Assembly: GCA_964648335.1 (NCBI GenBank)
Contig: CAZYLZ010000001.1
Coordinates: 93,449-157,448, forward strand
DNA: 64,000 nt
Origin: an uncultured Candidatus Saccharibacteria bacterium
GTDB taxonomy: Bacteria; Patescibacteriota; Minisyncoccia; Phycocordibacterales; UBA2100
Direction: 5' to 3'
Below, one piece after another: positions 12,001 to 46,669 of this stretch; the first letter of the stretch is position 1, and each line of letters starts with the position of its first letter. The notes under the pieces were generated by a model. It saw nothing but the letters and a program-made list of their open reading frames with translations, was not told where the DNA came from and made no database searches. The position numbers were made by a program, and so were the translations under genes.

Positions 12001-15000
12001 GTTTCGGCAATGGAACAGCCTGGCAGTTCTTCAACCTGATAGCTGGCAACGGGTCCGGATCGGGCACGATAACTAAAAGCGGTGCCGGTACGACTACCAT
12101 AAGTAATGTACTCACCGTCGCGACAAACGAAGCGCTCCAAGCAGGATCATCGGACTGGGTACTTAGTAAGGGCGGGACGCCGTTCATAGTCAACGGTCTG
12201 TTCACCGTGCAGACCGCGCCGTTCTACTACACGGCGACCACCTCGACTTCGGTGAAGGCGACGACCTATGCGGCATTGACGCTTGCTCCTGCTGCCGCAG
12301 GCACGCCAACCTTCACACTCTTGGGCGGAACGCTCTCCGCCACCAACTTGACGATCGGCGGGGCCAATCCGGTGACAGTGACTGCCGACACGAACGATCC
12401 ATCGCTTTCGATCACCGGAGACGTTACTATCGGTTCGAGCTCTACACTCATCGCATCGAATGTCGGCGCCTTCGATGTCGGTGGCAGCTGGACGAACTCG
12501 GGTGTTTTCACGCACTCGAGCAACACGGTTCGCTTCAATGGAAGTGCGGTAGGCAAGACCATCACACCAGGATCGTCCTCGTTCTACAATCTGACCATCG
12601 ATGGTCCATCCGGAGGCTGGACGATAAACGGCAACGCGACTTCGACCAACAACACAACTCTCACCAACGCCACCAGCTTTACCGTTTCGCCGAATGTATC
12701 CTTGGCGGTCTTGGGTACGTTCACGAATTCCGTGGGAGGCTCGAGCACGACCTGGGCGACCTCGACGCTCTTCCTCAACTCGGGCACGAGCTACTCTCTG
12801 AATACTAAGACGGCCGCGACCGAGGTGTACGGCACACTAGTAGTAGGTGCCAATACCGATATCCGCATGTGGAACTCGTCGGCTGCAACGACCAGCGTCA
12901 ACGCGACCGGCTCTCTTTACTCGCAAGACCACGCTGCGGTCGACGGAAGCCTCTATATCTGGGGCGAGTACATACGTAGTTCGGGATCGGACTACTGGAG
13001 CTATGCCACCGACTTCGATGGAACATCGCTCGGCGGCTCATCGCGCCAGGTGAACGTGCGCGTGGCCACGAGCTCTTCGATATCGATGACGGCGGGCGTG
13101 CTCGACATCATCGGTGCCCCCACTGCTTCGACGACCATCCAAGTACAAAGCACAGGCAATTACTCGTTCGGTGTCTCAGGAGGCACCTTGAATGCGAGTT
13201 ACTACGTCTTGAGAGACACCGATGCTAATGGCCTCAACCTCACTGGTTCTCCCACTATCACCTCTTTGTCGCGCGGAGACTTCTTGCTCGGGGTCAATGG
13301 CGGCACGACGATGACAGTCGCCGGAAGCGTCATAACGACGAACCCGCTCAAGATTATGCTCGGAAACAAATTCGCGACCTCGACAGGAATCACCTCGGGA
13401 TCGAACGTGAAGGTGACTGGCACAACCGGATCGTTCTGGAAGTTCAACCTGCACTACGGCGCCCTCGGCGGAGAGTCGTATGACGACGATCCGGGAGGGA
13501 ATCCGGGCTATGTGCGCTGGGACGACAGTGACGGCAACATCGTCATCGCAGGTACCGTTTATTCAGACGAAGGGTCGACAGTAAGTACTGTATGCGACAA
13601 CTCGACGCAGGTAGTGCATCTCATGGTCGAGGCCGCAGGCAGCTATACCGGATCGTGCAATAGCTTGACAGGCGCCTACACGATTTCGAATGTGTCGTAT
13701 AACCCGGGTGACAACCTTACTGTGTACCTCGATACGAACGGCGGACGTCGCGGTGCCAATATCAGTACCGATCCGAGCGTTAGTATCTCAGGCATGGACA
13801 TCTATGAGAATCGCGTCATCGTCCGCCACGAAGATACTGCGCCGCTTACCATCGCTGACATGGCCATATTCGACCACGACAGCGACTCGGACATACCATT
13901 TAACGCGACCGATGCCGGATCGGACACACTGGTAGTCGAACCGGATACCAAACTCATCGTCTGGACGGGTAAGACATTCGCACCGGCAGGCGACATCACC
14001 CTGCAATCCGGCGGATCCGGAAATGTCTGGGACGGATCGCTCCAGCTATTCAATAACGCGGTCTTCTCTTCTTCGGGAACGCAGTCGCACACGATTGGCG
14101 GAAATCTGACGGTAGGTACTGGTGCAAGTCTCCAAGCGGCAAGTACGACCTTTACCTTTACTGCTACGACTACCGGCAAGACAATCACGCCGAACGGCTC
14201 GAGCTTCTACAACCTCGTGTTCAACGGCTCGGGTGGAAACTGGGCGTTCTCGAACTCGACCGCGACCACGTCGAACGACTTCACAATCACGACCGGTACC
14301 GTCACCTTGCCGACGGCGACCACAACCGTAGGCGGTTCGTTCCAGAACAACGGCGGAACCTTCATGCATAACAATGGCGCGGTCGTCATGAGCTCGACGG
14401 CCTCTGGAAAGACCGTCAAAGCAGGAACAAACAATCCGTTCTACACCCTTGCCTTCAATGGCGTCGGGGGCGCATGGACCATGACCGACACGAACGCGAC
14501 GTCTTCGAACAATTTCACGATAACCAACGGAAGCGTCACCGCGCCGACAGGGGTCCTGGCAGTGGGCGGCTCGTTCCAAAATGCTGGCACGTATACCAAC
14601 AGCAGCGGAACACTCAAGCTCACTGCCGTAGCGGTCGGTAAGATCCTGCAGACCGGATCGTCGAATCTCTACAACCTCGTCGTAAACGGATCGGGCGGTG
14701 CTTGGACATGGAGCGACACGAACGCGACGACAACGAACACCGTAACTATCTCAAGCGGTACACTCACACTTCCTGCGGGAACGCTCGCAGTCTTAGGTTC
14801 GTACGATTCGACCGGCGGGGCATTCACGCCAGGAACCGGAACGGTCCGATTTGCGGCGACCGCGACTGGAAAGACCGTCACGCCGAGCTCCTCTTCGTTC
14901 TACAACCTCGTATTCGACTCTGCGACCGGAGGATGGACCATCACGGGAAATGCGACCTCGACCAATAACACATCCATACTCAATGCATCCAACTTCACAC

Positions 15001-18000
15001 TCTCACCAGGCGTGTCGCTCGGAGTGTCCGGTGCCTTCACGAATTCGGTAGGCGGAGCGAATACCACATTCACGAACTCGACCCTCTACTTGAATTCGGC
15101 TTCGACCTATTCAATAAATACGAAAACGGCTCCAGCTGAGGTATACGGCACGCTATTAATAGGTGGGAACACCGACGTTCGCATGTGGAATTCGTCTGCT
15201 GCAACGACCAGCGTCAACTCGACCGGCTCTCTCTACTCGCAAGACCACGCTGCGGTCGACGGTAGTTTGGCAATCTATGGAGAGTATGTCCGGACGTCAG
15301 GTACCGAATACTGGACGTATGCTACCGACTTCGACGGCACCGCGCTTGGTGGTTCTTCTCGTGCTGTCACCGTAAACGTCGCTACCAGCTCTACCCTGGC
15401 CTTCTCGGGCGGAACCCTCAACATGACCGGAGCGGTTGGAGCGACGACGACGGTCCGCACGACCGGATCTACTGGTACCTACAGCTTTGCGGTTTCTGGC
15501 GGCACCATCGACGCTAGCTACTATAGAATCCAAAATACCGACACGAACGGCCTTTCTATCTCGGGATCTCCGGCAATCACCTCGCTCTCCAACGGCGATT
15601 ACGAGCTCTACACCAATGGAGGCACCATGATGACGATCGCCGCAGCGGCAATCGACGCAAATGCGAGCCTCTCCGTAAGTAATGTCCGTTTCGCCACCTC
15701 GACCGGAATCGCCAGCGGTTACAACGTGACGCGAACCGGCACGCCGATAAACGCATGGACATTTACCGGTCACTACGGAAACTACGCGGGCGAGAATTAT
15801 GACAACGACGGCGGAGATGCCTGTGGAAAAATCCGGTGGGACGACAGTACCTGTCTTCTCGTAAGCCAGGATCACTACCGCTGGCGAGCTGACGACGGCG
15901 GAGAAGGAGCTCCGAATTCGGACTGGTACGATCTTACGTTCTCCAAACGCCAGAAGATTGGCATCACCAACAACGTAGCGACCGCATACACGAACCTACC
16001 GGTCAAGCTCATCGTTAACTACGACGGCGATATGCAGAGCGATTTCGACGACCTGCGGTTCACCGATTCAAGCGGCACGACGACCTTGCGCTATTGGATC
16101 GAGTCATCGACTGCATCGGCGTCTTCAACTCTCTGGGTCAAGGTCCCGTCACTGCCGGCATCGGGCTCCGCTGTCGTGTATATGTACTACGGCAACAACT
16201 CGACGACTACCGCGTCGAGTGGCACGAATACGTTCAAGTTCTTCGACGACTTCGAAGACAACAACATCACTGAGTACTCAGGCAATACGACCATGTTCAC
16301 GACGAGCACGAGCTTCAATCATGACGGTACCTACGGACTCGATGCAGGATCAAACTTCGACCAGAGAACTACCGGCGGTATCTATCGGACGGGATCCTTG
16401 TCGGCACGCGGCGATACTGTGAGCTTCTATCAGTATGTCGACAACGCGATTCCCGACGAGCCATGTACACTCTTTGGTGTCCAAGGATCCGGGTCGAACT
16501 ATGCGGTTTGTCTCGATCAGGACCCATCTGACAAGGTGTCGATCTCGAAAAACGTCACATCGAACGACGAAGGTGGTACAGTGCTCGCTTCGACGACCCT
16601 GAGCTGGGCGACCGGCTGGTATCAGGTGAAGGTCGATTGGCTCACCACTAACGCGATAAACGTAAACGTCTATAACAGCTCTGGTGCGCTCTTCGCGACC
16701 GCCACGGCAAGCGACTCAACGTGGTCGAGCGGCGGTGTCGGCTTCAGCTATTGGTTCATGTACGGCGGATGGGACACGTATACCGTCAAGCAGTACGTCG
16801 CTACGGATCCGAGCTATAAGTTCGGCGTCGAACAGACGTATGGCGGCGCTACCTGGTATGCTGCGGAGGACACGGCGTACACCACCCGCAGCTACGGAAA
16901 TAACCTACGCCTTCGTTTCTCGATTCAGAACACCGCGAGCGCTGTCTTCGGTCGCCTCTTCCGACTGCAATACGCACCGAAAGCCTCGGCGCTTAACTGC
17001 GAATCGGTCCCGTATGTAAACTACAACGACGTACCTACGCACGCCGGCGGGTGTGGATCGTCCGCCGCGTGCATGGCATCGACCACCAATTATGCAAGCG
17101 GCGATGTGACCGCGGGTCTCCTTACGTATCCCGCATCAGCTACCTTCAATGCCGGGTCGGTGATTGAAGAGCCGTCAAACCAGACCGCAAGCTCCACGGT
17201 CTCGGCAGCAGGTGCTACCGAAGTTGAGTACAACTTCCAGATGACAGCAAATGCCACGGACAATACCTACTGCTTCAGGGCGTCCAATGGCGGCAGCGAC
17301 CTTGATAACTACACGCACGTCGCAGAACTCGACATGATCTACGTTCCGATCATCTCGAACCATAAGCTCAATAACGATGCGGATATCGCCCTCACCGAAG
17401 GAGCATCGACCACCATCGCGGTCACCGCGACCGTGACCGATCAGAACGGCTACGCCGACCTGAGTCTCGCTTCCTCGACTGTCTATCGTTCGGGCGTCGG
17501 ATCGATCTGCAGCGCCGACGCAAACTCGTGCTACCGTCTCGGTACATCATCCTGCTCGTATTCTGGCTGCTCTGGAGCTTCGTGCACGCTTACGTGCAAT
17601 GCGAACGTTCAGTACATCGCCGATCCAACCGACGTAGGCAGCTCCTATTCTGCAGAGAGCTGGCTCTCGGAATTGTGGATTACCGACCTCGAGGGCAATA
17701 CGGCGACTTCGTCATCGGTATCGGTCGATCTCCTGACCCTTTACGGCCTTACCGTGAATACGGCGAATATCGACTTCGGCTCTCTCTCGGTCGGATCGAC
17801 GACGGAGAATGTGAATGCGACGACGACTATCCAGAACACAGGTAACACGAACATCAACATCTCGGTCGCCGGAACCGATCTGGCCGGAACGCAGGGAACC
17901 ATCGCAGTGGGTGAGATCAAGTATGCGACTACGACGTTCGCGTACGGAAGCTGCGCGGTCTGCCAGTTCCTGACTGGCGGCGCAACACCGGTCGTCGTCG

Positions 18001-18128
18001 ATCTTCCGAAGCCGACGTCGACTTCGACGCCTATCACAGACGATCTGTACTGGGGTCTTAACATCCCGAACGGCACGAGCGCCGAGCTTCATAGCGGTAC
18101 TAATACGTTCTTAGCAACATCGCCATAA
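1..18128 (+). CDS. giant multidomain cell-surface adhesin-like protein (5' partial, at least 6000 aa): phage-tail-fibre-like HxH repeats, FN3-like modules, WNGxSW propeller-like modules, long beta-helix-like repeat array, DUF2341-like plus LamG-like module, and a C-terminal domain shared with CDS 23410..25293
   Basis: One uninterrupted frame from nt 3 (no in-frame stop upstream of the first GTG at 129) to the stop at 18126-18128. Motifs read from the translation: TYYWRVRAK(D/E) three times; paired HTHT/HTHA/HTHS motifs three times; (V/Y)WNG(S/T)SW about 12 times; repeated GTF(M/T/N)HN.G...KT units; DWYDLTFSKRQKI..LRFTDSSG..LRYWIE..LWVKVP..YMYYGNN (DUF2341-like) followed by a jelly-roll-like segment. 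Confidence 0.9.
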   Translation, partial: YFTSELEEVGAWRDLSDVRVVVEYDRGTNNTAPAEIYLDSAWVSVSYKDRVQGLVPKDAEDVSSDAPANVAFELTEPEDKSSQMLSPDGKDILFPFVDSLDDTGLVIRADKDTYDVGDGVDSVAYVSITNTKSDTDLFDLYTAFAENGGSVKEIAQFLRNVPEVTEVPLYDDVTYFCEGGWTKGSGGITYDCATSSDSKQCSWLSETRENCQVNNVVVSSEKTTDYKNAWVPIELTRDETATNRFSTGAGAFKAQTVTKSLVEILPGQTVYFRVSLSGTDDGKHPFKLVAQGVSGYGDLDMTMLKAESSLEGAQATGVAALQSHVNEQLSGRKTFDGDELPEFKFKFTSQRNFFMRSILTLARRNTFKATAQVRHESGEIEDVPAEIQYGKDGEWTLSLTEHPRAFRPGKYSIEIAIKEGSQTYTDTADFYWGVLAINTDKSAYQPGDQVNLMMAALDDRGDTICDADLVLSVLAPDGALSDIPVQRSGLCAKNNVVDVADYLATTTVAQTGVYGIDLAEYDADGTVVHRTTDSFKVEEKSPFVISRKGATRIYPVSSYSMDINVTVAMDFEGEFIESVPSDFEVLDRDGAEIRMYGSAKNLAWPLKLKEGETAHFRYIYDAPDISPYLYAVGPAEIRASAGIPFSEGKQWKLASDATGNMLLYWDQPYIPTGWTCVSCFVTDSFYQRFVMGSSTAGTNGGAATHTPTATGAVIASAGSQGVDTNNQATPVVAHTHTYTPTIAAASNLPVYRQLAIIQSNTVGEPTSIPAGAIAMFDAAVPSGWTRYAAQDGAFVRSESTSTAGVAAGSNTHTHAISGNTGAAATTANIRNPGTSVTVAAAAHTHSVSTTTVSISNTPPYVETIFGKITATSSPTNAMIAMWSGDPSAGWTTVSSSSETYANKFPLASTTYGATGGASTHTHTNITGITSGAPSATIARDSTPATTNVATAAHTHAVNVTFTSVDSNLPPYRTAVFAKRVGGAAPNGPTLHDVLFDSEKTGTSTPTFTFTASDPDGSDTLVYQFQWDDDSDLNTSPLGDRTSDVETGCSPNCFSNTVTPSNTSPFNEAEKIQFAIQTPLVSGTTYYWRVRAKESGGGGTWGSWATTTSFTYVANTAPSQWYQTEDGQFDSDTKSSVETFGSNSARLALNAPTEALIAYGEGTVQTPRYRLWNGTSWGSELSAQSVGGTIRWVVTKAAPTRNEYVLATLDDVNDINVQVYDGGAGTWGNLWEVTTGASNSLRRGVDVAYESQSGDAIAVYCDGDADPAYYVWNGTSWTFGGTIDITSANNCEYIQLASDPISDEIMLIERDTGAAYEAQVWNGSSWGNSKVMGSMTDVIHEGIAIQYEESGNQAMVLTSNGNTSGFLWNTWDGSSWGVNTTKALGDDFEWGRLRADVGSDKLSLCYIDNDSDTGVVEWDGNAWGAFAAATNERETASNGFDGRPEDCAYETTAGRDGYLMLSYSDTTNGRYQYYDGASWTAEASLSTAQDSWTVGSVRTGDGIILSMFQNDADGRYDVSSWNGASWSALQTVETVQSVTVTPFLQPIDMAAKIYRAGSGSITSGTIDFDSVPGRSSWGDVIWHTTEPSGTDVKMQVMYESAGTCSTLVPDGTLPGNSTGFDVSSSPLNLSGLSTSTYNRICLKSTLSTGNLSQPALDDWTVTWERQPYLTQTHFRWYVNATTTYNPSDPWPAGTTTDAVEDASISGLSSPIPNDILRLRVGISAANVALGTSDQLFRLQYAQSSTCSSATSWMDVGAIGSTTAKWRGVDNTSLTDGTTLTTPLLLTADVGESYEEENDTVLNPNSISVGNEGEWDWVLQHNASSSEAYCFRMITSGGEVLDQYDNYPTLITNNSPAAPLQDVPFDNQVASSTTPWFDFAAEDPESDDITYQVQIDDDSAFGSINLDRNSQSNLNDFNNIVTPADKDPFNSGQMIRFIPATALTDGVTYYWRVRAKDRNKSNEWSAWSDVRSLTIDTSIIITTWKETTLYQFANDTLEDSEATSTNDVVITPPLVNATTTGTLIDYDWKNMGNAWGELSWTDDESVGDIKYHIEYFDGTSWALIPDSDLAGNASGYDTSPVSLLGVSPTAYNQIRVRADMTNVGGTPRLQDWTIKWGIGVPQPTLTAPFDNEKVSTTTPYFKFSSTDPENNDLIYQFSYSSSPLFTSSTTRSSDIDTGFENFASSSDISPFASGSTTKYTLPFASPLTNGNTYWWRARARDPSGGNAWSPWSDAYSLTVDTAVIVSTWFQSTTEQFDTDTLNDTEANSGTARIAATNREAMVAYAETTVQTPRFKFWNGISWGSKLSGVSVGDTIRFVEAAAAPTRDEYAIATQGATGGVNVQIVNGTTDAAGNKVNMVPAVTGLTQRGVDVTYETISGDAMVVSCSGTQAVYRTWNGSAWSATSSITLAIATNCQWVKLAADPISDEIILVVRDQTTGTVDYEALVWNGSSWGNPRFIGSQVTVNDEGIAVEYEESGDQAVVAVSDGVNNDFAWTTWNGSAWSATSTRAIGNDFAGGRIKRDTGSDNMVMCYIDIDSDIGISRWDGSTFLAFQEFETLGNSLNGRPQSCEFETTAGRDGYIIGPYTNTTIGNYVVWDGASLTGPFALSTLPDSWEVRSVRTDDGNILVAAYNDADTEYDFSYWNGTTWSALEVLDANSITTVVPATIPIDIVARKYPEVVSGNVASTPIVFTSGLGPKWGSISYSKSTPGLSTFNLQVEYLTSTSSWALIPDADLSGNSTGTTTSPVDISNLNYTTYGTLRLKANLACAGVNCPTLNDWTLAWSEGVHVTGTAKQFDQTTNVTSGTAQVAVNGAIQAGKTATISGGTFDIPNVTAFTGDIITVFINGANDANEAVAITKYDGVGDMTGLKLYERHLTLGSADNPTLTNTDIGIFDNTVSGDEDIFYDVDAGNDLNLCSITGCFNSRLLVQSGTTYRPDSSSSGNVTARNLQIDGTLVADGNSFFISGSWKNNSIFTANTSTVVFTATSTSETVDSISAATSTFYAVTFGQTSGTATWTLSSDLLASSTVSVNFGTLAQSNRAIMLSSNLSFGASGAFTKGTGTTTFMGSGSNTWTDNTVAKQDLGEVMIDGSAKTIALGSGVRATNITIGSDDILTAGTSFSIDVVGNWINNNIFTAQTGTVNFVSTTAGRTITQGSSNFYNLTFNGVAGNWAFTGANLGVDNNFTISTGTVAMPTGTTTVAGSFDTNGGTFMHNNGVVLLTASGAKTVRPGASSFYDLTFNGSGSWTFVDANATTSRNTFLLAGTLTAPSGTLAIGGSFARNGGTFTHNSGTLKFTAASSKTIRLNGQNASNITFDGVGGAWSFVDTFATTTGSVTILNGYPSLASSTLAVGGSFDSAAGTFNHASGTVRFFATAAGKTIAPGTSSFANLVFDSTSGGWTITGNATTTASTTITNASSLTLSSGRSLEVKGGFTNAVGGANTTWTGSTLYLNSGTSYSLNTKTTGGDVYGTLLVGTNTNIRSWNSDAGTTTTLTGASVYSQDNNAVDGSLSIYGTYVRSSGTDYWSYATDFDGVALGGSSRQVTVRVATSSTMTFSGGALNIVGAAGATTTVRTSGSTGTYGFAVSGGSLNASFYRVQNTDASGLSLSGTPTVTSLADGDFELSTNSGSLITVASTVIDANPLAEFQRVRFATTTGITAGFNVTETGTPSSYWWFRSHYGNFAGESYDNDPGGDPGHIHWDDSGFTISVAGTVYTDEGVTHATNPLCDGSTPVVKLVVSGAASYTASCASGSGAYLMPAVQFSGDAVFTVFLDTNGGTRAATVTRTPSINLTGLDLYQNALVVRHEGSSALTIANLALYDSSDDSDIAYTATTGSPDALVLEPDNELYVLTGKTFAPGGNVTLTSGGSGTNRDARLFVATSSVYAASTTESHSIGGNLVVSGSSTFTTASTTFTFTATTTGKSIYTAQPITFHDATFNGSGANWNFVSATTSTTTISHALTITAGTISGTSDIKVSTGGISGSGTVAMTGGTVRLEGTGSFGNGTAWQFFNLIAGNGSGSGTITKSGAGTTTISNVLTVATNEALQAGSSDWVLSKGGTPFIVNGLFTVQTAPFYYTATTSTSVKATTYAALTLAPAAAGTPTFTLLGGTLSATNLTIGGANPVTVTADTNDPSLSITGDVTIGSSSTLIASNVGAFDVGGSWTNSGVFTHSSNTVRFNGSAVGKTITPGSSSFYNLTIDGPSGGWTINGNATSTNNTTLTNATSFTVSPNVSLAVLGTFTNSVGGSSTTWATSTLFLNSGTSYSLNTKTAATEVYGTLVVGANTDIRMWNSSAATTSVNATGSLYSQDHAAVDGSLYIWGEYIRSSGSDYWSYATDFDGTSLGGSSRQVNVRVATSSSISMTAGVLDIIGAPTASTTIQVQSTGNYSFGVSGGTLNASYYVLRDTDANGLNLTGSPTITSLSRGDFLLGVNGGTTMTVAGSVITTNPLKIMLGNKFATSTGITSGSNVKVTGTTGSFWKFNLHYGALGGESYDDDPGGNPGYVRWDDSDGNIVIAGTVYSDEGSTVSTVCDNSTQVVHLMVEAAGSYTGSCNSLTGAYTISNVSYNPGDNLTVYLDTNGGRRGANISTDPSVSISGMDIYENRVIVRHEDTAPLTIADMAIFDHDSDSDIPFNATDAGSDTLVVEPDTKLIVWTGKTFAPAGDITLQSGGSGNVWDGSLQLFNNAVFSSSGTQSHTIGGNLTVGTGASLQAASTTFTFTATTTGKTITPNGSSFYNLVFNGSGGNWAFSNSTATTSNDFTITTGTVTLPTATTTVGGSFQNNGGTFMHNNGAVVMSSTASGKTVKAGTNNPFYTLAFNGVGGAWTMTDTNATSSNNFTITNGSVTAPTGVLAVGGSFQNAGTYTNSSGTLKLTAVAVGKILQTGSSNLYNLVVNGSGGAWTWSDTNATTTNTVTISSGTLTLPAGTLAVLGSYDSTGGAFTPGTGTVRFAATATGKTVTPSSSSFYNLVFDSATGGWTITGNATSTNNTSILNASNFTLSPGVSLGVSGAFTNSVGGANTTFTNSTLYLNSASTYSINTKTAPAEVYGTLLIGGNTDVRMWNSSAATTSVNSTGSLYSQDHAAVDGSLAIYGEYVRTSGTEYWTYATDFDGTALGGSSRAVTVNVATSSTLAFSGGTLNMTGAVGATTTVRTTGSTGTYSFAVSGGTIDASYYRIQNTDTNGLSISGSPAITSLSNGDYELYTNGGTMMTIAAAAIDANASLSVSNVRFATSTGIASGYNVTRTGTPINAWTFTGHYGNYAGENYDNDGGDACGKIRWDDSTCLLVSQDHYRWRADDGGEGAPNSDWYDLTFSKRQKIGITNNVATAYTNLPVKLIVNYDGDMQSDFDDLRFTDSSGTTTLRYWIESSTASASSTLWVKVPSLPASGSAVVYMYYGNNSTTTASSGTNTFKFFDDFEDNNITEYSGNTTMFTTSTSFNHDGTYGLDAGSNFDQRTTGGIYRTGSLSARGDTVSFYQYVDNAIPDEPCTLFGVQGSGSNYAVCLDQDPSDKVSISKNVTSNDEGGTVLASTTLSWATGWYQVKVDWLTTNAINVNVYNSSGALFATATASDSTWSSGGVGFSYWFMYGGWDTYTVKQYVATDPSYKFGVEQTYGGATWYAAEDTAYTTRSYGNNLRLRFSIQNTASAVFGRLFRLQYAPKASALNCESVPYVNYNDVPTHAGGCGSSAACMASTTNYASGDVTAGLLTYPASATFNAGSVIEEPSNQTASSTVSAAGATEVEYNFQMTANATDNTYCFRASNGGSDLDNYTHVAELDMIYVPIISNHKLNNDADIALTEGASTTIAVTATVTDQNGYADLSLASSTVYRSGVGSICSADANSCYRLGTSSCSYSGCSGASCTLTCNANVQYIADPTDVGSSYSAESWLSELWITDLEGNTATSSSVSVDLLTLYGLTVNTANIDFGSLSVGSTTENVNATTTIQNTGNTNINISVAGTDLAGTQGTIAVGEIKYATTTFAYGSCAVCQFLTGGATPVVVDLPKPTSTSTPITDDLYWGLNIPNGTSAELHSGTNTFLATSP
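2080..2960 (+). repeat. three tandem modules of about 320 nt, each encoding paired H-T-H-(T/A/S) motifs and ending in NLP(V/P)Y, within the giant CDS
   Basis: Translation shows AATHTPT..AHTHTYTP..NLPVY / SNTHTHAIS..AHTHSVS..NTPPY / ASTHTHTNI..AHTHAVN..NLPPY. Confidence 0.7.
3470..4720 (+). repeat. first copy of a WNGxSW repeat module of about 1.2 kb (about 6 blades, propeller-like) within the giant CDS
   Basis: LWNGTSWG, VWNGTSW, VWNGSSWG, TWDGSSWG, EWDGNAWG, YYDGASW, SWNGASW spaced about 55-70 aa apart. Confidence 0.7.
6830..7990 (+). repeat. second copy of the WNGxSW repeat module within the giant CDS
   Basis: Collinear paralogue of 3470..4720: FWNGISWG, TWNGSAW, VWNGSSWG, TWNGSAW, RWDGSTF, VWDGASL, YWNGTTW; the intervening motifs are the same (VQTPR(Y/F)(R/K), PTR(N/D)EY, ETTAGRDGY). 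Confidence 0.7.
9470..15850 (+). repeat. array of short beta-helix-like units organised into a triplicated super-repeat of about 2.3-2.4 kb inside the giant CDS. Conserved cores lie at about 10290-11640, 12720-14040 and 15040-15850
   Basis: Equivalent nucleotide landmarks at 10293, 12720 and 15037 (GGFTN(A/S)VGG..T(W/F)T.STL(Y/F)LNS..TKT). Copies 2 and 3 share stretches of more than 90% nt identity (e.g. 12860-12960 vs 15180-15275). Confidence 0.8.
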
Positions 18129-18132
18129 CCAT

Positions 18133-18819
18133 ATGAACCAACAAACACAACCACAGTCACGTGTCTCATCAGTAGCACGACTCGTGACCATGCCTGCGAT
18201 CCTACTTCTCATTGCGGCTGCTGTGCTCGCGTACTTGTTTCTCCGTTCGAATACCGAGCTTTCGAACGTATATGCCGACTACGACCGATCGGGGAAGACA
18301 TATTCGGATGCGGCGTTTCTGGTCGGTTCTAACAGCAATCCGCTCCGTATCGAGCTCAATCAGGTGCTTGCCGAAGTTCTTGGCAAGGCCATGACTCCGG
18401 ACGAGCGGATGGAAAAAGTACGGCGCGGCAGGGAATTACTCGTCGAATCAGCACGACAGATTGATGCTATCGGAGACAGCGGTGACGTATCGTCGAGTTC
18501 AATCAAGCTTCTCGACTCGACGTCGCGCGGATTGGGGAACCTCTATGCTCGACCTGGAGCGGCGAAAGTGGTCGAACTCTCACGAACGAAGAGCAACATG
18601 ATTGCGGACATCCGCGGGCTCTCGTACAAGACCAACTACTACATCTCGCAGATCTTCGACCGTATCGAGCGGGATGGAGGAGCGCTGACTCAGGATCATA
18701 TTAAGGAGCTCAACGCGAGGATCCCCGAACTGGAGGCTGAATTTGACCGCCGAGCGAACCTGTACACTGATCTCGAGAGCATCAACTATAAGATACAGAA
18801 CGAGATGGCTGGCAGATGA
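18133..18819 (+). CDS. hypothetical membrane-anchored protein (one N-terminal TM helix, then a probable coiled-coil)
   Basis: ORF begins 5 nt after the giant gene stop; TM helix LVTMPAILLLIAAAVLAYLFL; no recognisable catalytic motif. Confidence 0.6.
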   Translation: MNQQTQPQSRVSSVARLVTMPAILLLIAAAVLAYLFLRSNTELSNVYADYDRSGKTYSDAAFLVGSNSNPLRIELNQVLAEVLGKAMTPDERMEKVRRGRELLVESARQIDAIGDSGDVSSSSIKLLDSTSRGLGNLYARPGAAKVVELSRTKSNMIADIRGLSYKTNYYISQIFDRIERDGGALTQDHIKELNARIPELEAEFDRRANLYTDLESINYKIQNEMAGR

Positions 18820-18870
18820 CCTCTATGAAGCGTGGATTGCAGGGCGGACGTTGTGGTAAACTTATCCGAT

Positions 18871-19218
18871 ATGGATGAACAGATACCGCCAGTACCACCG
18901 GTGCCGCGCCGAACGCGCCCAGGCCTTTTCTCCCGCATTTGGCACACCGCCGTGGTCGCCTTCGATAATCTCTTGGATTCTTCGGTCAGGAATGTGGCTA
19001 TCATGTGGCGTGAGTTCGACCTCTTCTTTGGTGCACTCGCGTTCTTCGTTGGACTCCTCGGTTTCGACGCCGGTAAGTTCTGCGACGGCAACACAGCCGA
19101 CTACCTCTCATGCACACGGCCTACCGCCTACTACTATTTCGATTCGATCGACATCGCACTCGTCGTCCTCGGTGCTTTCTTTATCATGTTGTGGACTCTG
19201 AAGCGCGCTCGGCGATAG
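18871..19218 (+). CDS. small hypothetical membrane protein (two predicted TM helices); an alternative GTG start lies at 18832
   Basis: ATG at 18871; hydrophobic helices FFGALAFFVGLLGF and IALVVLGAFFIMLWTL; start codon is ambiguous. Confidence 0.4.
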   Translation: MDEQIPPVPPVPRRTRPGLFSRIWHTAVVAFDNLLDSSVRNVAIMWREFDLFFGALAFFVGLLGFDAGKFCDGNTADYLSCTRPTAYYYFDSIDIALVVLGAFFIMLWTLKRARR

Positions 19219-19303
19219 ATTGTTTCTAGTACTGGATATCTGGGTAACGGGGGATGATACAATTCCACTATGTGTTTTAGTGTTTTAACACGCGGCTAAC
19301 CGT

Positions 19304-20743
19304 ATGAGCGTGCATTCCTTCCGATATCCGCTCTCTATATTCGCGTTCTCTATGGCGTTCGCCGCAGCGTTCCAGACTTCTGTCGCGCTCGCCGCCGAAA
19401 TCTCAGATGTGAAGATAACCGGCGTTGATGACGGATCGGCGACCATAAATTGGAACACCGATATTTCGACCGATGCGACCGTTAATTTCGGCATAGATCC
19501 GCGCGTGGGCATTGAGCGTGATCCACTCTTTGACAAGAAAGAGCATTCCATAGTGGTCGACAGGCTCGACCCCGCTACAACGTATTATTTTCGCGTCATT
19601 TCCACTGACGCGCAGGGTAATAAGAGTGCGACGGCAGGGTATCAGTTTACGACCAAGAGTAACGACAAGAAAACGGCAAAGAAGGCGGTGACCGAGATAG
19701 AAAAGATCAAGGATCCCGAGGCGCTCAAAGAAGTGATCGAAGAGGTGCAGAAGGTCGCGAGCGATGTCATCAGGCCACCGTCGATTCAGGGTGAGCCGAA
19801 GGTGATAGCCGCCAACGACCATGCGGACATTATTTGGACGACCGACCGCAACGCGAGCTCTATGGTGTATTTTGCCAAGGATGCGGAGTTTGATCCGGCT
19901 GCCGCGAACCCGTACCCGACAGCACAAGGCGACCCGAACGACTCGACCATGAAGCACACAATTACCCTCGTGGGGTTGAGCCCGTCAACCTTGTATCATT
20001 ACAAGGTTTCATCGGAAGACTCTGCGGGAATGACCGGAGAGTCCGAAGACAACACTTTTAAGACCAATGCGACCTTGCCGCAGATCATCAACCCGACCAT
20101 AAGCCGGATCCAAGAGACCGCGGCGACCGTGAGCTGGGCCACTGGCGGCGTACTTTCGAAGGGTGTGGTCGAGTATACGAACCTACGTTCCAAAGTCACC
20201 AAATCTGCAGGTAATCCGGTGTTTTTGACGAACCATAGCATTCAGTTATCGGGACTCGATTTTGGAACTCGCTATTCAGTAGTCATTACCTCGACCAACG
20301 AGGCGGGAAACGAAGTCGCGAGCAAGCCGCTGACGTTTCTCACCGTACGCGATATCGTCCCGCCGGCCATCGCTAAGGTCAACAACGAATCGACGCTCTT
20401 TCCGAGCGAAGACGTAAAGATACAGACGATCATTTCGTGGGAGACAGACGAGCCCTCCTTCTGTCAGGTTCATTACACGCAGGGACTCGTGCTTGCTGCG
20501 GGAGAGCAGGGCGACGTCTTGCCGCTCGAATCAAACCCGCTTACCTCGCATACACAGGTTATCGTCGGATTTGCTCCTGCAACCGTGTATAAGTTTTGGA
20601 TGCTCTGTCATGACGAAGCAGATAACGAGGCGCGATCCGAAGATTACGTGCTTATCACTCCGGTGAAAGAGAAGAGCATCATCGATATCATCCTCGAAAA
20701 CTTCCAAGGAACATTCGGCTGGCTCAAGAACATCAAAGGATAA
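19304..20743 (+). CDS. secreted protein with four FN3-like (purple-acid-phosphatase-N-terminal-like) domains
   Basis: Signal peptide ..AFAAAFQTSVALAA; four repeats each ending in an FN3 hallmark: ATTYYFRVISTDAQGN, TLYHYKVSSEDSAGM, TRYSVVITSTNEAGNE, TVYKFWMLCHDEADNE. Confidence 0.8.
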   Translation: MSVHSFRYPLSIFAFSMAFAAAFQTSVALAAEISDVKITGVDDGSATINWNTDISTDATVNFGIDPRVGIERDPLFDKKEHSIVVDRLDPATTYYFRVISTDAQGNKSATAGYQFTTKSNDKKTAKKAVTEIEKIKDPEALKEVIEEVQKVASDVIRPPSIQGEPKVIAANDHADIIWTTDRNASSMVYFAKDAEFDPAAANPYPTAQGDPNDSTMKHTITLVGLSPSTLYHYKVSSEDSAGMTGESEDNTFKTNATLPQIINPTISRIQETAATVSWATGGVLSKGVVEYTNLRSKVTKSAGNPVFLTNHSIQLSGLDFGTRYSVVITSTNEAGNEVASKPLTFLTVRDIVPPAIAKVNNESTLFPSEDVKIQTIISWETDEPSFCQVHYTQGLVLAAGEQGDVLPLESNPLTSHTQVIVGFAPATVYKFWMLCHDEADNEARSEDYVLITPVKEKSIIDIILENFQGTFGWLKNIKG

Positions 20744-20744
20744 T

Positions 20745-22091
20745 ATGGCAAAAACAGCAGTACAAGCGGCAGGGATGATCATCACTTACAACAAAGGTAA
20801 GGCGAATGAATTCAACGCGCTCAATAACGTCAATGCCGAGATTTATCCGCGCGAATACATCATCCTCTTCGGTCCGTCGGGTTGCGGCAAGTCGACCTTG
20901 CTCTATACGATGCTCGGGGGCATCCCACCCGAAAAGGGGCATATGTACGTGAAAGGCGAAGACATCTACGCCTACACTCCCGCCGAGATGAATGAATATC
21001 AGCAGTCGACCATCGGGATCGTGTACCAGCAGTTCAACCTCATCTCTTCGATATCGGTGCTCGATAATGTCGCTTTGCCGATGATTTTCCTCGGAAAGTC
21101 GGTCGCTGAGCGTAATGCGCGCGCGTCCGAGCTTTTGCGTCGTTTCGGCATCCCGGAACGTCTCGAGGACAAGCTTCCGACGAATATGTCCGGTGGACAG
21201 CAGCAGCGTGTGGCGGTTGCGCGCGCATTGGTGAACGATCCGGAAATCCTTCTCGCCGATGAGCCGGTCGGTAACCTCGACTCCATCTCTGCAGAGCACG
21301 TCATGGACTCGTTCAAGGAGATCAACGAGAAAGACCGCAAGACCGTGGTGCTTGTCACACACGACGCGAAGTACCTTCCGTACGCGCACCGGGTATTTTA
21401 TATGCGCGATGGAGCGCTCCGACGCATCGTCGTGAATCCAGAGAAGGATCAGATATTGCACATGAAGCCGGGCGAGACGATCGTGACCGAGATCGAGCTC
21501 TTGAACCGACTCTACCCATATGCCGAGCCGATCGAACTCAAGGTGAAGAGCCTGGTTAATTACGCGACGCAGACCATTGGATTCGCACAGCTCGAACGGT
21601 TGGAAAAGGGGATATTGCAGGTGCTCCGCGGCGCTTTCGATGAAGCTATGTTTAACGAATACCTCCAGAAGGGCATGCGCGAGGGCGGCGTCGGTATCGT
21701 GAGCGAAGAGAGTAGAGATATCACGAAAAAGGTGTTTGCTATCGTGAGACAGTCGAAAGACGTGCACCAGTATCGCGAAGAGGTAAAAAATGACACCATG
21801 TTCTTGCACCAGCGCAAGTTCATTGACCGGATCCTTACCTATATTCTCGAGGAGACAGGAACGGTTTCGACGCCGCAGCAGCTCAAGATCCTCCATGATG
21901 CGGTTGCCGACCGCGTCGGGGGCATCACCAACGGAAGCGAATTCGAAGAGATACTCGCGCTCCCGTTCGAGCTCGGTGGAGCCAATTACCCAGAACTTGT
22001 TGCACACCGCACTGCACGGTATCTCGAGAAGCTGATCGCGCAAGGTGGGTATATCATTCTTGCTAACGAGCTCCTCGGAGCGCACACCTAA
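20745..22091 (+). CDS. ABC transporter ATP-binding protein (MacB/LolD-like NBD) with a C-terminal extension of about 220 aa of unknown function
   Basis: Walker A GPSGCGKST, Q-loop, signature LSGGQQQRVAVARAL, Walker B ILLADEPVGNLD, H-loop VTHD. The start is 1 nt after the stop of the upstream FN3 gene. Confidence 0.95.
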   Translation: MAKTAVQAAGMIITYNKGKANEFNALNNVNAEIYPREYIILFGPSGCGKSTLLYTMLGGIPPEKGHMYVKGEDIYAYTPAEMNEYQQSTIGIVYQQFNLISSISVLDNVALPMIFLGKSVAERNARASELLRRFGIPERLEDKLPTNMSGGQQQRVAVARALVNDPEILLADEPVGNLDSISAEHVMDSFKEINEKDRKTVVLVTHDAKYLPYAHRVFYMRDGALRRIVVNPEKDQILHMKPGETIVTEIELLNRLYPYAEPIELKVKSLVNYATQTIGFAQLERLEKGILQVLRGAFDEAMFNEYLQKGMREGGVGIVSEESRDITKKVFAIVRQSKDVHQYREEVKNDTMFLHQRKFIDRILTYILEETGTVSTPQQLKILHDAVADRVGGITNGSEFEEILALPFELGGANYPELVAHRTARYLEKLIAQGGYIILANELLGAHT

Positions 22092-22095
22092 ACGT

Positions 22096-23304
22096 ATGAA
22101 AGCAAAAGACATCGCAATGCTCTCGACTCGTATGTTCAAGACGAACCCGTCTCGAACGTGGCTCACTATCCTCGGCATGGGTGTCGGAACCGGTGCTGTC
22201 GTGGCTCTTGTGGGTCTTGGCTTCGGACTTCAGAGCATCATTCTCGAGCGCATCGTCTTCGGTGAGACTCTCTTGAGCTTGAACGTGGCTAATCCGCCAT
22301 CATTGGTGGTGAAGCTCGACCAGAAGACTATCGATGACTTTGCTACAGACCCGTTGGTTAAAGATGTCTCGCCTATGGCGAGCTTCCCTACCTTGGTGAC
22401 CTACGAAGGCCTTACCGGTAATGCATTCTTGCAGGGTATGAAGCCCTCGTACTTCCTGTATACCGGAGGCAAGGCTGAGGCAGGAGAGCTCTTTTCCGAT
22501 GCGACCGCGATCGACGATCGCGATAATGTCATCATCTCGTCGGCCATGCTCAAGCTGTTCGGTGTCGAGAAGCCCGAACAGGCCCTCGGCAAGAAGATCA
22601 GCTTCCGAGTATTCGTCCCGATCGAAGGTACCGAAGAATCGACGGAGATAAACCTTACGAAACAATACACGATAAAAGGTGTGAGCGGCGACGTATCGTC
22701 CTTGGTGGCCATCATGACAATGGACGAGTTCCAGTCTCATTTCAAAATTCCTCACTACGAGCGTACCCAAGTGCGCGTCCTAAAGAGTGATAACCTTGCC
22801 GAGGTACAGAACGCAATCCTTGCGAAAGGATTTACCGTGACGGCTCTTTCGAAGACGGTCGAGCAGGCGAACAAGATCTTCCAGGGAATCCAGTTCGTCC
22901 TGGCTGTGTTCGGGGGTATCGCACTGACGGTTTCTGCAATCGGTATGTTCAACACGATGACGGTTACGCTCCTCGAACGCACTGCGGAAATCGGCGTCAT
23001 GCGAACTATCGGCGCATCCTCGACCGATATCGTGATTCTGTTCGTCGCCGAGTCGATCATCGTAGGGTTTTTGGGAGGGGTCGTAGGAATACTCATCGGG
23101 GTGGGGATAGGGTTCGGATTAAATGGAGTCGTCAGTGTTGCGGCAAGTAAATTCGGCGGAGAGTCGGTGCGCATCTTTGCATACCCGATGCCGTTTCTAG
23201 TGTTCATCGCGTCGTTCTCGGCTGCCGTCGGTTTCTTGACGGGACTGTTTCCAGCACGTCGTGCGGCGAAGATCAACCCGCTCGACGCTATCAGGTACAA
23301 ATAA
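22096..23304 (+). CDS. ABC transporter permease of the FtsX/MacB type (4 TM helices, large extracytoplasmic loop)
   Basis: First TM LTILGMGVGTGAVVALVGLG, extracellular domain of about 220 aa, then three C-terminal TM helices (FVLAVFGGIALTVSAIG, VAESIIVGFLGGVVGILIGVGIGF, FLVFIASFSAAVGFLTGLF). The start is chosen at ATG 22096, just after the NBD stop at 22091. Confidence 0.85.
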   Translation: MKAKDIAMLSTRMFKTNPSRTWLTILGMGVGTGAVVALVGLGFGLQSIILERIVFGETLLSLNVANPPSLVVKLDQKTIDDFATDPLVKDVSPMASFPTLVTYEGLTGNAFLQGMKPSYFLYTGGKAEAGELFSDATAIDDRDNVIISSAMLKLFGVEKPEQALGKKISFRVFVPIEGTEESTEINLTKQYTIKGVSGDVSSLVAIMTMDEFQSHFKIPHYERTQVRVLKSDNLAEVQNAILAKGFTVTALSKTVEQANKIFQGIQFVLAVFGGIALTVSAIGMFNTMTVTLLERTAEIGVMRTIGASSTDIVILFVAESIIVGFLGGVVGILIGVGIGFGLNGVVSVAASKFGGESVRIFAYPMPFLVFIASFSAAVGFLTGLFPARRAAKINPLDAIRYK

Positions 23305-23372
23305 TCGTGGTGTGGTCATATCCGGGAGCCATTTTGCTGGAAACTTATCCACCTTATCCACAATTTTAGACT

Positions 23373-23379
23373 GAGGAGG
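23373..23379 (+). promoter_or_regulatory. strong Shine-Dalgarno GAGGAGG serving a 6-codon mini-ORF (23388..23408, MLLFPY) whose stop lies 1 nt before the ATG of the 23410 gene
   Basis: GAGGAGG, 8-nt spacer, ATG at 23388; TAG at 23406-23408; main ATG at 23410. Confidence 0.45.
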
Positions 23380-23409
23380 TCCTAAAAATGCTACTATTTC
23401 CTTACTAGT

Positions 23410-25293
23410 ATGTCGAAAGCATCGCACGCGTTTTACCTTTGCAAAGACTATGTCAGACGCACGTTCGGGCTGCCCGATAATCCTACTGCGGGCAAGGTGA
23501 CGCTTTTTACAGTTGTAGGAGCGACTATCGCTGTTTTCATCGGGTCATTCGCCTTCTTTGACGTGAATGTCTCGACCGTTAGCGCCGACGACGTCACAAC
23601 TTCTGTCACGGTACTAAACACGCCGCCAGTCTGGACTGTCGATGCCGAGGAAAGCACTGAGTCTTCAACAACGACTCCAACAAACTCGGGTTCAGTACTG
23701 AGCTTCGTGGGAACCGCGACAGACTCGAACAACGATAACTACTTCCTGCTCATCTGTAAGACCTCAGGGACTCCGACGGCGTCTTCCAATGCTCCTCCGG
23801 CATGCAACGGCGGCATTTCAAATCAATGGGCGCGATCGGCGACGACCACCAGCGGTGCGCAAGCGACGGCGTCTACCTCGACTAAAGAGACCTTCCCCTT
23901 CAATGCCGAGGCAAACCATTGGTATGCATGGGTCTGCGATGCAAACGCGTCCTTGGCGCGCTGCAATGCGACATTCAAGCAGGGAAGCGGCGCTACGGCC
24001 TCGCCGTTTGTCATAAACCATCCCCCAACCTTCATCTCGGTAAGCAATAACGGACCGGTCTTGCCAGGCATCCCTATAACATGGACGACGGTGGCCTCGG
24101 ACACTGACGCTATCCGCGGCGCCGACACGCTCGCGCTATTCGTATGCAAGGCAGCAGACTTTACTGGCTCTGACTGCGGGGCTGGCGGTTCATGGGCCTC
24201 GACTACTTACTATGCGTTGAACAATCCCCAAGCCTCGACCACTATCGCGATTCCCACGCAAGACAAGCAGTATTCTGCGTTCGTGTACGTTATAGACTTT
24301 AAGGGCCGTACTGCGACCTCTTCGCAGCAGGGATTCAACTCGGCCTACTACGTATCGAACGCGACGCCAGCGGTGACGGCTGCGACGATCAGTCTCGTGG
24401 ATACCGATAACTCAGGTAACCTGACCCTGCTCACACCACACGCATCGACGACCGGATTCAAAGTCCAGTTCGAGGTGACCGACAACAATAGCTGCCTGAA
24501 CGCATCGAGTACGCGCGAGATCGGCACAACCACGATAAACGTCTATCGCTCGAGCGTGACGCAGGCTGCCTGCATGGTTTCTGGTGACTATAATTCCAAC
24601 AGTTGCTATACGGCTCAATCTTCGCTGTTTCCGATAAGCTGCACCCAAGATGTCGCATCGTGTAGCGGGGCATCGGACGTGAGCGCAACATGGACATGTA
24701 CCCACACCCTTTGGTATAACGCAGACCCGACTGACGCATCGACCCAATACACGGCAGATAACTGGCTCGCTTCAGTCCAGGCCTACGACAATAACTACGC
24801 AACAAGTACGCTTACGGAGTCGACGACCGGCAACGAGCTTTCGAGCTTCCTGGCGTTCGATGTCTCTTCGACCTCGATCAGCTTCGGGGCATTGGAGCCG
24901 GGTCAGCAGAATGACCCGCTCGCCACGACGACCGACCTTCTCGCATACGGCAACGTCGGACTGGACGAAGATCTCTACGGAGACACCATGTGTACCACCT
25001 GGACGACGGCAGACTCATGTGACATCGGCGGAGTTAATGCGGCAACGAAGATTCCGGTCAGTAATCAGAAGTTCGCGACATCCTCTGTCGCGTATGCGGC
25101 AGGAAACACCCTTACGGGCTCAACATCGCCGTCGCTCCTCCTCATAAATGTTCCTAAGACCATTGCTACGAGCTCACCACAGACCAGGAACACTTGGTGG
25201 GGTATCAACATCCCGAGTGCCATAACGTTGGCAGGTAACTATTCGGGTCAAAACACCATCACTGCGATAAAGAGCGATCCTGCCAACTGGTAG
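23410..25293 (+). CDS. Cys- and Thr/Ser-rich surface protein with an N-terminal TM or signal anchor; its C-terminal domain of about 250 aa is paralogous to the C-terminus of the giant protein
   Basis: TM VTLFTVVGATIAVFIGSFAFF. C-terminal ..CSGASDVSATWTCTHTLWYNADPTD..NTWWGINIPSAITLAGNYSG.. aligns with ..CSGASCTLTCNANVQYIADPTD..LYWGLNIPNGTSAELHSG.. at nt 17500-18125. Confidence 0.8.
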   Translation: MSKASHAFYLCKDYVRRTFGLPDNPTAGKVTLFTVVGATIAVFIGSFAFFDVNVSTVSADDVTTSVTVLNTPPVWTVDAEESTESSTTTPTNSGSVLSFVGTATDSNNDNYFLLICKTSGTPTASSNAPPACNGGISNQWARSATTTSGAQATASTSTKETFPFNAEANHWYAWVCDANASLARCNATFKQGSGATASPFVINHPPTFISVSNNGPVLPGIPITWTTVASDTDAIRGADTLALFVCKAADFTGSDCGAGGSWASTTYYALNNPQASTTIAIPTQDKQYSAFVYVIDFKGRTATSSQQGFNSAYYVSNATPAVTAATISLVDTDNSGNLTLLTPHASTTGFKVQFEVTDNNSCLNASSTREIGTTTINVYRSSVTQAACMVSGDYNSNSCYTAQSSLFPISCTQDVASCSGASDVSATWTCTHTLWYNADPTDASTQYTADNWLASVQAYDNNYATSTLTESTTGNELSSFLAFDVSSTSISFGALEPGQQNDPLATTTDLLAYGNVGLDEDLYGDTMCTTWTTADSCDIGGVNAATKIPVSNQKFATSSVAYAAGNTLTGSTSPSLLLINVPKTIATSSPQTRNTWWGINIPSAITLAGNYSGQNTITAIKSDPANW

Positions 25294-25477
25294 AGATGCT
25301 TTTGGAGCATGCATTGCGGTGAAAACGTTCGCAGTACATGCATTCTTTTACCTACAAACAGCCCACCGCCTTTCATTCATCGGGTGAGGTATCCCGACGG
25401 TACTCGGGCCATTGCGCAAGATACGCAGTGTTTGCGTGCTCAAACGGCAAAAAACGAGGGTCTCACGTGCTAGAATT

Positions 25478-26476
25478 ATGGTCATGAAGTCGGCCATGCA
25501 ACGGCTCGGTATTTTGCGTTACGCGCCTGTTTTGGCGATCGTTGCTGTCGTGGTGTCGCTATTCCCGGGACATGCGTACGCCGGTTTCGGTATCACACCT
25601 CCCTATGTCAATAATGATCGACTCACTCGCGGAACTCAGTATAAACAGGAGATAACGCTGGTGCGCTCAGACCCGAACGAGGACCTGAAGGCGATCATCA
25701 CTTTGAACATTCCGGGCGCCGAGAGCTGGATTTCGATTGACAAGGGTAAGGAATTCACGCTGCCGAAAGGAGAGAGACAAGTGCCGATCGTCGTGACGGT
25801 TACGGTTCCTAAGGATGCGGAGTACAAGCAATACAAAGGTGCCATCAGAATCAGAACCTCTGCTGCGGATAACGCACCAGCAGGTGGCGGAGTCTCTATC
25901 GCGCTGGGAGCGCAGATTGACGTCGATATGAAGGTCGTGGACAAGATCTATGATTTCGAAGTCAGGCGCATCCGCCTCGTCGATCTCGAAGAGGGCCATA
26001 CTCGCTTCGGACTGTTCTTCCCGGCGAAGATTAGGTTTTTCATGACCATCGAGAACACAGGTAACACCGAGTACGGTCCAACGAAGGTCAAGTTCGACAT
26101 CTTTGATGCTGAGCAGGAGACGCTGTTGGAATCGACCGAAAACACCAATAGGATCGAGCGGATAGCACCGTTCGGCATAAAGGAAATCGTGGCCGAGCTG
26201 CCTACTCGATTACCAGCCGGGCGCTACGCGGCGAAATACACCATTTTCAATGGCGAGAAGGTCGCGCAGCAAAACGTCGCGAATATTTCGATCGCGGTGT
26301 TCGGCGCAGTTCCAGGATACGAAGGTTACGGATTCGAAGGGCTCTCGATCGCCGACAAGCTCAAGGTATTGGTCGTGCTCGGAGTGCCATTCGCACTTCT
26401 CGTAGGTCTCATAATTGCGGTCATCATCCGTCGAAAGAATCGCCGACGCCCGCGAACGACGCATGCTTTCCGATAA
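25478..26476 (+). CDS. CscA-like surface protein (DUF916/DUF3324-like architecture: signal peptide, two beta-sandwich-like halves, C-terminal TM helix and basic tail); fourth paralog of the 46.7-52.0 kb family
   Basis: Signal peptide ..LFPGHAYA; TM VLVVLGVPFALLVGLIIAVII followed by RRKNRRRPR; core similar to CDS 46670, 48025 and 50866 (ITLNIPGAESWISIDKG..FTLPKGERQVPIVVTVTVP). Confidence 0.55.
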   Translation: MVMKSAMQRLGILRYAPVLAIVAVVVSLFPGHAYAGFGITPPYVNNDRLTRGTQYKQEITLVRSDPNEDLKAIITLNIPGAESWISIDKGKEFTLPKGERQVPIVVTVTVPKDAEYKQYKGAIRIRTSAADNAPAGGGVSIALGAQIDVDMKVVDKIYDFEVRRIRLVDLEEGHTRFGLFFPAKIRFFMTIENTGNTEYGPTKVKFDIFDAEQETLLESTENTNRIERIAPFGIKEIVAELPTRLPAGRYAAKYTIFNGEKVAQQNVANISIAVFGAVPGYEGYGFEGLSIADKLKVLVVLGVPFALLVGLIIAVIIRRKNRRRPRTTHAFR

Positions 26477-27647: not shown

Positions 27648-27670
27648 CAGGTCTGAGTACGCGGTATACT

Positions 27671-46640: not shown

Positions 46641-46669
46641 TGTGCATAAGTGCTTAACCGATTACCTGT

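Follow-up and report, generated by a model that had tools for sequence, protein, structure and literature searches.

What keeps a surface protein longer than 6,000 aa on the cell of an uncultured bacterium, and which of the genes around it serve that end? The question is raised by a locus in a 64,000-nucleotide stretch of contig CAZYLZ010000001.1 (assembly GCA_964648335.1; called the window in what follows), where the genes of a giant surface protein and of a 627-aa surface protein enclose those of a secreted protein with four fibronectin type III (FN3) repeats, an ATP-binding cassette (ABC) ATPase and an FtsX-type permease. Both surface proteins carry the same C-terminal domain, which we name Cdom, and a sequence-only reading of the window had proposed that the FN3-ABC-FtsX genes form a dedicated module that handles, anchors or processes the proteins bearing it. 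The host belongs to the ultrasmall Parcubacteria, an abundant group without cultured members that is believed to live in attachment to other cells. To our knowledge, the attachment machinery of Parcubacteria is almost unknown, and WxL domains and WxL-interacting proteins (WxLIP) have until now been studied only in Firmicutes.

In Firmicutes, a WxL cluster pairs a small WxL protein with a large one whose WxL domain is C-terminal, and adds a WxLIP of 337-365 aa. This WxLIP has a signal peptide, two immunoglobulin (Ig)-like domains and a transmembrane helix, and its proposed role is to retain the WxL domain at the wall (PMC10599100, PMC9772566). The answer we favour for the Parcubacteria locus, at roughly even confidence, is a surface complex that resembles a WxL cluster, in which Cdom would fasten both surface proteins to a WxLIP-like anchor, to the wall, or to both.

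Cdom is a large and unannotated domain family

The giant open reading frame (ORF; 1..18128, + strand) encodes more than 6,000 aa and is truncated by the window start, since no in-frame stop is met back to window base 3. When its last 499 aa were compared by BLASTP with the 627-aa protein (23410..25293, +), a single alignment of 282 columns was obtained, with 32% identity and an E value of 3e-22. The two C-termini are thus paralogous, as the sequence-only reading had claimed. The shared region spans the last ~260-310 aa of both proteins; copy 1 lies at 17343..18128 (+), as seen in BLASTP against copy 2 and in the family alignment, and copy 2 at 24355..25293 (+), as seen in the AlphaFold2 model and the conserved columns. 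Within the window, a tblastn search with both copies returned only these two. The Cys cluster, the ADPTD and the WG(L/I)NIP motifs pointed out earlier are present in both proteins (CSGASCTLTC...YIADPTD...YWGLNIP in the giant and CSGASDVSATWTC...YNADPTD...WWGINIP in the 627-aa protein), but neither protein ends with WG(L/I)NIP as had been stated, about 22-27 residues following it in each. In an alignment of 21 family members C73, C84, C96, C115, D124, T126 and W137 never vary, and at least 90% of the members keep C47, C103, W282 and P287. The alignment also displays the ADPT motif, a GN motif and a W..P motif, and the six conserved cysteines sit in the first part of the domain.

The family reaches far beyond the window. 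When 1.84 billion representative proteins were searched with its profile, 1,746 clusters (at the 50% identity level) were obtained with E<=1e-3, of which 701 have E<=1e-30. Among the best 150 matches Cdom is almost always found at the C-terminal end, in proteins of ~300 to more than 2,000 aa. The 627-aa protein has at least 439 homologues, and most of the 120 listed measure 550-640 aa. The named records with Cdom are of Parcubacteria type, namely Adlerbacteria, Azambacteria, Kaiserbacteria, Spechtbacterales and Paceibacterota.

Pfam and NCBIfam scans of both copies and of the 21 members, at E<=10, gave nothing meaningful, and a sequence-profile search of the PDB gave no match. The AlphaFold2 model of Cdom, built with the family alignment as input, is all-beta (predicted local distance difference test score (pLDDT) 89, predicted template-modelling score 0.80). 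Foldseek searches with the model against the PDB and BFVD (viral models) returned generic Ig/FN3-like multi-domain proteins only, with template-modelling (TM) scores of at most 0.32; these were integrin calf domains, FimH, Fabs, RbmA and phage FN3 proteins. According to the model, Cdom has a generic Ig-like/FN3-like fold, an outcome that the sequence-only reading had named in advance as speaking against its proposal. Since no sequence model matches it while the fold matches are generic, we regard Cdom as a sequence family of its own, so far unannotated, with a fold that is common.

A WxLIP-like gene is the constant neighbour of the Cdom genes

In order to follow the gene neighbourhood, we collected 37 loci, 34 of them distinct, from metagenomes and GTDB species genomes, and mapped all window proteins onto them by tblastn. 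In every locus with downstream flank (33 of 33), a gene of the type that encodes a 354-aa protein in the window (25412..26476, +; start probably near 25478-25496) lies directly 3' of the small Cdom gene, and it is kept even where its product has fallen to 26-30% identity (loci L003 and L037). In the protein, a signal peptide precedes an ectodomain of ~270 aa, to which a C-terminal membrane helix and a basic tail are joined. Its mature N-terminus, GFGITPPYV (25496..25530 and orthologues), is nearly invariant across the family and is a candidate contact strand.

Three paralogues of the 354-aa family are encoded in the window (46670..48028, 48025..49422 and 50839..51972), and hhalign aligned the family with them over 233 columns (probability 97.7%, E 1.4e-12). 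The paralogue at 50839..51972 matches PF06030 WxLIP_PGBD with E 8e-6, its 26.3 bits falling one bit short of the curated cut-off (27.3). PF11797 WxLIP_HBD matches 4 of 19 members of the 354-aa family, with a best E value of 2.4e-4, below the curated cut-off. Judged by these profile comparisons, the 354-aa protein is probably a distant relative of the WxL-interacting proteins.

The three paralogues belong to a second surface locus (45312..54182) with the same logic, in which a different C-terminal domain of ~150 aa is shared by a 442-aa (45312..46640) and a 380-aa protein (49651..50793; 35% identity, E 7e-17). Here the genes of the 442-aa and 380-aa proteins are interleaved with the three genes for WxLIP-like proteins with a transmembrane anchor, a gene for a Big_6/dockerin protein follows, and this second locus holds no ABC transporter. 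Homology between Cdom and the C-terminal domain of the 380-aa protein was considered and dropped, hhalign being not significant; for the same reason, that their last strands look alike is not taken as evidence of homology.

The FN3-ABC-FtsX module is a frequent but probably dispensable neighbour

Five ORFs separate the giant from the 627-aa gene. The three that had been named earlier have the Pfam identities claimed for them, while two small ones (18133..18819 and 18832..19218) had gone unlisted. The secreted 479-aa FN3 protein (19304..20743, +) has a signal-peptide-like N-terminus and four FN3-like repeats with a helical linker after the first (Pur_ac_phosph_N 3.1e-26, fn3 2.3e-17). The ABC ATPase (20745..22091, +; ABC_tran 8.7e-33) is of the LolD/FtsE/MacB type; in NCBIfam its best matches are LolD (6e-53), DarD and FtsE (3e-51), all below the equivalog cut-offs. 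It continues into a C-terminal extension of 218 aa (21435..22088) that is conserved in the relatives examined and all-helical in its AlphaFold2 model; with a pLDDT of 71 and no PDB fold match at E<0.8, the extension gives no functional clue. Homologues of the extension number 27, and the sole one with usable context is also linked to a Cdom locus. The permease (22045..23304, +) combines a MacB_PCD domain (PF12704, residues 38-259, 1.7e-18) with an FtsX domain (PF02687, residues 288-412, 2.3e-15). Its true start is probably the ATG at 22096, 4 nt past the ABC stop, because homologues align from residue 17-18. Only 1 nt separates the FN3 stop from the ABC start. The genes are therefore as tightly packed as had been said (1 nt and ~4 nt), whereas packing does not establish the translational coupling that had been read into it. 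An antisense ORF of 481 aa (20733..22178, -) spans the whole ABC ATPase gene and is most likely a chance open frame.

A MacB-type (type VII) ABC system is defined by a permease with a four-TM FtsX domain and a large extracytoplasmic MacB_PCD between TM1 and TM2, and by an ATPase of the LolD/FtsE/MacB type encoded next to it; by domain content, permease and cognate ATPase constitute such a system. They do not qualify as an FtsEX complex, for which a coiled-coil hydrolase activator would be the partner: FtsX models score 27-37 bits on the permease against cut-offs of 225-255, and the locus contains no PcsB/EnvC-like gene.

The FtsX/ABC genes lie directly upstream of the smaller Cdom gene in 27 of the 33 informative distinct loci (82%), which include records labelled Adlerbacteria, Azambacteria, Kaiserbacteria and Spechtbacterales. 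The linkage is kept where Cdom has diverged to ~42-47% identity and the ATPase extension to 34-42% (L026, L029, L032-L036). Given these low-identity loci and the linked extension homologue, the association of transporter and Cdom is real and old. Insertion of the module in a single clade was considered and dropped, as loci from Azambacteria, Kaiserbacteria and Spechtbacterales carry it too. In L036, on a 1.08-Mb contig, the space between the giant and FN3 genes has received an insertion with an rve-type transposase and a gene for an asparaginase (2897..4956), and the locus is otherwise intact.

The co-occurrence proposed earlier as a check on the dedicated module thus holds for most loci but not for all, since six lineages keep Cdom without a transporter nearby (L003-6, L007, L008, L020, L028 and L037). 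Both Cdom genes, large and small, are present in 23 loci, and they are directly adjacent in five of the lineages without a transporter; L003-6, L007, L008 and L037 are cases with no transporter between them. In L020, a close relative (58% identity), glycosylation genes stand upstream of the small Cdom gene in place of the transporter, a context that hints at glycosylation of Thr/Ser-rich surface proteins; the genes preceding Cdom there (1..8974) are sugar-nucleotide, glycosyltransferase and Wzy_C/TPR O-antigen-ligase-like genes. In L028 the last 80 FtsX codons (8780..9019, 57.5% identity) are found between two intact Cdom genes. This remnant is the relic of a deleted FN3-ABC-FtsX module, a natural deletion that left the Cdom proteins untouched. 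Because these six lineages retain Cdom genes without the transporter nearby, we regard the transporter as a frequent but dispensable accessory. Of the dedicated module the linkage stands, while the neighbour that never changes is the 354-aa gene and not the transporter.

A docking model and its alternatives

From the observed paralogy, family size, C-terminal position, synteny and family ties of the partner, we infer docking. The giant and the 627-aa protein would be exported by Sec, and Cdom would then act as the docking module that holds both at the cell surface, its binding target being the WxLIP-like anchor, the wall, or both. The larger and the smaller protein would in this way present different outward-facing domains behind a common Cdom, and the cohesin/dockerin-like proteins encoded downstream may extend the assembly through further non-covalent links. 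The FN3 protein and the MacB-type pair, and here we are less sure, would be a frequent accessory that the Cdom proteins do not require in order to exist; it probably assists the assembly, release or remodelling of the complex through ATP-driven movement of the permease outer domain.

Several observations weigh against the docking model. By the criterion of Hassan & Williamson (PMC10599100), a WxL cluster has at least two adjacent proteins that have in common a WxL domain at the C-terminus, whose Trp-x-Leu motif is dual, together with a full-length WxLIP (signal peptide, DUF916 PGBD, DUF3324 HBD and a C-terminal transmembrane helix, about 337-365 aa) within four genes; the definition also has the shared domain bind peptidoglycan and WxLIP. 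The WxL models match none of the 21 Cdom members at E<=10, so that by sequence no WxL domain is recognized; Cdom has a single W-G-(L/I) motif in place of the dual one, and with its ~260-310 aa and six conserved cysteines it is about twice as long as a WxL domain. On the side of the partner, every match to a WxLIP family falls below the Pfam curated cut-offs, and WxLIP_PGBD (formerly DUF916), taken more widely, has an Ig-like fold of a common kind. Besides, synteny inside one bacterial class can persist without physical interaction, and an ABC linkage of 82% across distant lineages could equally make the transporter the functional partner.

That last point leads to the proposal of the sequence-only reading, in which the FN3 protein and the MacB-type ABC/FtsX pair would be a dedicated mechanotransmission machine with Cdom as its client. 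Its action on Cdom proteins at the membrane, be it extraction, loading or processing, would resemble that of LolCDE, which extracts lipoproteins, or of FtsEX, which drives a partner outside the cytoplasm. Type VII ABC systems act on extracytoplasmic partners by mechanotransmission (PMC5985334, PMC7668044), and the analogy may for this reason be called a legitimate one. The position of the module immediately upstream of the small Cdom gene in several lineages, the unusual 218-aa ATPase extension, found in this context only, the MacB periplasmic core domain of the permease and the close packing of the genes are all consistent with it. The six lineages in which Cdom gene(s) and the WxLIP-like gene occur with no such module nearby, L028 and L020 among them, argue in the other direction, as do the inseparability of the WxLIP-like gene from the Cdom genes, the second WxLIP-type locus in the same window, which lacks a transporter, and the fact that in Cdom we recognized none of the features known from partners of FtsEX, MacB or Lol. 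Since only 10 kb of flank is visible in the transporter-less genomes, where a copy could lie elsewhere, we still give a dedicated handler perhaps one chance among several, and consider it the less probable account. A bolder variant joins this proposal to the docking model: the FN3 protein and MacB-type pair would form a so far undescribed Parcubacteria display machine that loads Cdom proteins onto the WxLIP-like anchor or releases them. We put this forward as a speculation with little probability behind it; if true, the machine would handle adhesins of more than 6,000 aa and would provide host-dependent ultrasmall bacteria with a switchable attachment apparatus.

Another explanation would grant Cdom no specific partner. 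Cdom could be a mere Ig-like stalk that arose by tandem duplication, with the gene order reflecting shared ancestry and co-expression of unrelated envelope genes, a view that fits the generic Ig/FN3-like Foldseek matches with their low TM-scores and the origin of all loci from one bacterial class. We think it improbable, as Cdom nearly always occupies the C-terminus while the N-terminal regions ahead of it differ widely, in proteins of 300 to more than 6,000 aa, as sequences of 28-30% identity still keep the invariant Cys, ADPT and WG.x.P positions, and as the trio formed by the Cdom pair and the WxLIP-like gene outlasts rearrangements that remove other genes. It is more doubtful still, to the point of being hardly credible, that the Cdom proteins are the subunits and tip adhesin of a pilus-like fibre built by Ig-like strand exchange. 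FimH and the CFA/I tip adhesin do occur among the Foldseek matches, with TM-scores of about 0.27, and the pairing of a large with a small protein recalls tip and shaft; yet the locus has no usher, chaperone, sortase or LPXTG motif (a sortase gene lies ~9 kb away in L003 only), and Cdom is modelled as a complete fold with no missing strand.

Altogether, the analysis defines a large unannotated domain family that marks the biggest Parcubacteria surface proteins, together with its constant membrane partner and a frequent ABC module. It links the locus to the WxL/WxLIP system, supplies concrete candidates for studies of host attachment and a new domain definition of Pfam type, and offers in the lineages with and without the transporter a natural experiment on what the ABC module contributes.

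Gene content around the core of the locus

The conserved locus comprises about 12 genes. Upstream of Cdom, the giant contains a DUF2341 domain (PF10102, ~16041..16268, E 5.9e-26), and in the 627-aa protein an N-terminal hydrophobic signal or anchor and Ig-like repeats precede Cdom. Behind the giant, the ORF at 18133..18819 (+) encodes a 228-aa protein with a single N-terminal hydrophobic segment; it is kept in close relatives only, with tblastn matches of 31-47% identity in most of loci L001-L031, and the Pfam scan assigned it to no family. The adjoining 128-aa ORF (18832..19218, +) is likewise confined to close relatives (tblastn, 38-54% identity).

Downstream of the WxLIP-like gene, a 410-aa protein with DUF4215, Big_6 and dockerin-like domains (26415..27647, +) is encoded in nearly all loci with sufficient flank, and is absent from L003-6 and L037. 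It is followed by a 327-aa protein whose translation has a signal peptide and a C-terminal transmembrane helix (27635..28618, +), and by a weakly cohesin-like 331-aa protein that also ends in a transmembrane helix (28615..29610, +; Cohesin E 0.011, Big_13 0.005) and whose orthologues have Cohesin in their precomputed Pfam list. On the opposite strand lie the genes for a 255-aa protein with a weak Dockerin_1 match (29619..30386, -; E 0.011), which is conserved in the locus, and for a membrane-anchored 262-aa protein found in close relatives (30396..31184, -; tblastn, 29-39% identity). The 327-aa and 255-aa proteins cross-match with the cohesin-like neighbours, the former with both the 331-aa and the 255-aa protein in tblastn. 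A promoter and terminator scan gave matches no more numerous than in shuffled sequence, and operon boundaries are therefore not fixed by it.

Further along the window, a second giant ORF (31739..43387) encodes a protein of 3,882 aa that combines a signal peptide with long repeats rich in Thr and Ser and with a Gly-rich block; neither a Pfam match nor a Cdom copy was obtained for it. At 62001..64000 the G+C content drops from ~0.55 to 0.37, and this stretch, which may be foreign DNA, carries a 433-aa ORF (62624..63925, -) with no Pfam match.

Comparison with known systems

The transporter genes are closest to the MacB, LolCDE and FtsEX systems. The permease has the MacB_PCD and FtsX domains, and the ATPase comes nearest to LolD, FtsE and MacB; in contrast, no NCBIfam score comes near its equivalog cut-off, the ATPase bears its 218-aa helical extension lacking a fold match, and the 4xFN3 protein takes the position in which a MacA-type adaptor or an EnvC/PcsB-type partner would stand, neither of which is present.

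In S-layer and S-layer-associated proteins, one anchoring module (SLH or CWB2) is reused behind differing outward parts. Cdom is likewise a single module on proteins with different outward-facing parts, but SLH and CWB2 bind wall polymers, whereas the suspected ligand of Cdom is a protein partner, and no sequence relationship was found between them.

The closest parallel may be the WxL clusters of Enterococcus, Lactobacillus and Listeria. A literature search returned nothing on the present locus, and none of its top results joined WxL with Patescibacteria or the candidate phyla radiation. Unlike those clusters, the locus resides in Parcubacteria and not in a Firmicute, contains in addition FN3-ABC-FtsX and cohesin/dockerin-like genes, and lacks an LPXTG protein. 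As in those clusters, a large and a smaller secreted protein have a common C-terminal domain, the large one bears adhesin-like domains, and an adjacent gene encodes a protein of ~310-355 aa in which an ectodomain lies between a signal peptide and a C-terminal transmembrane helix, here from a family weakly but repeatedly linked to WxLIP_PGBD and WxLIP_HBD. The three-part logic is thus alike while Cdom is not a WxL domain by sequence, and for this reason we do not file the locus as a WxL cluster and propose instead that it may work like one.

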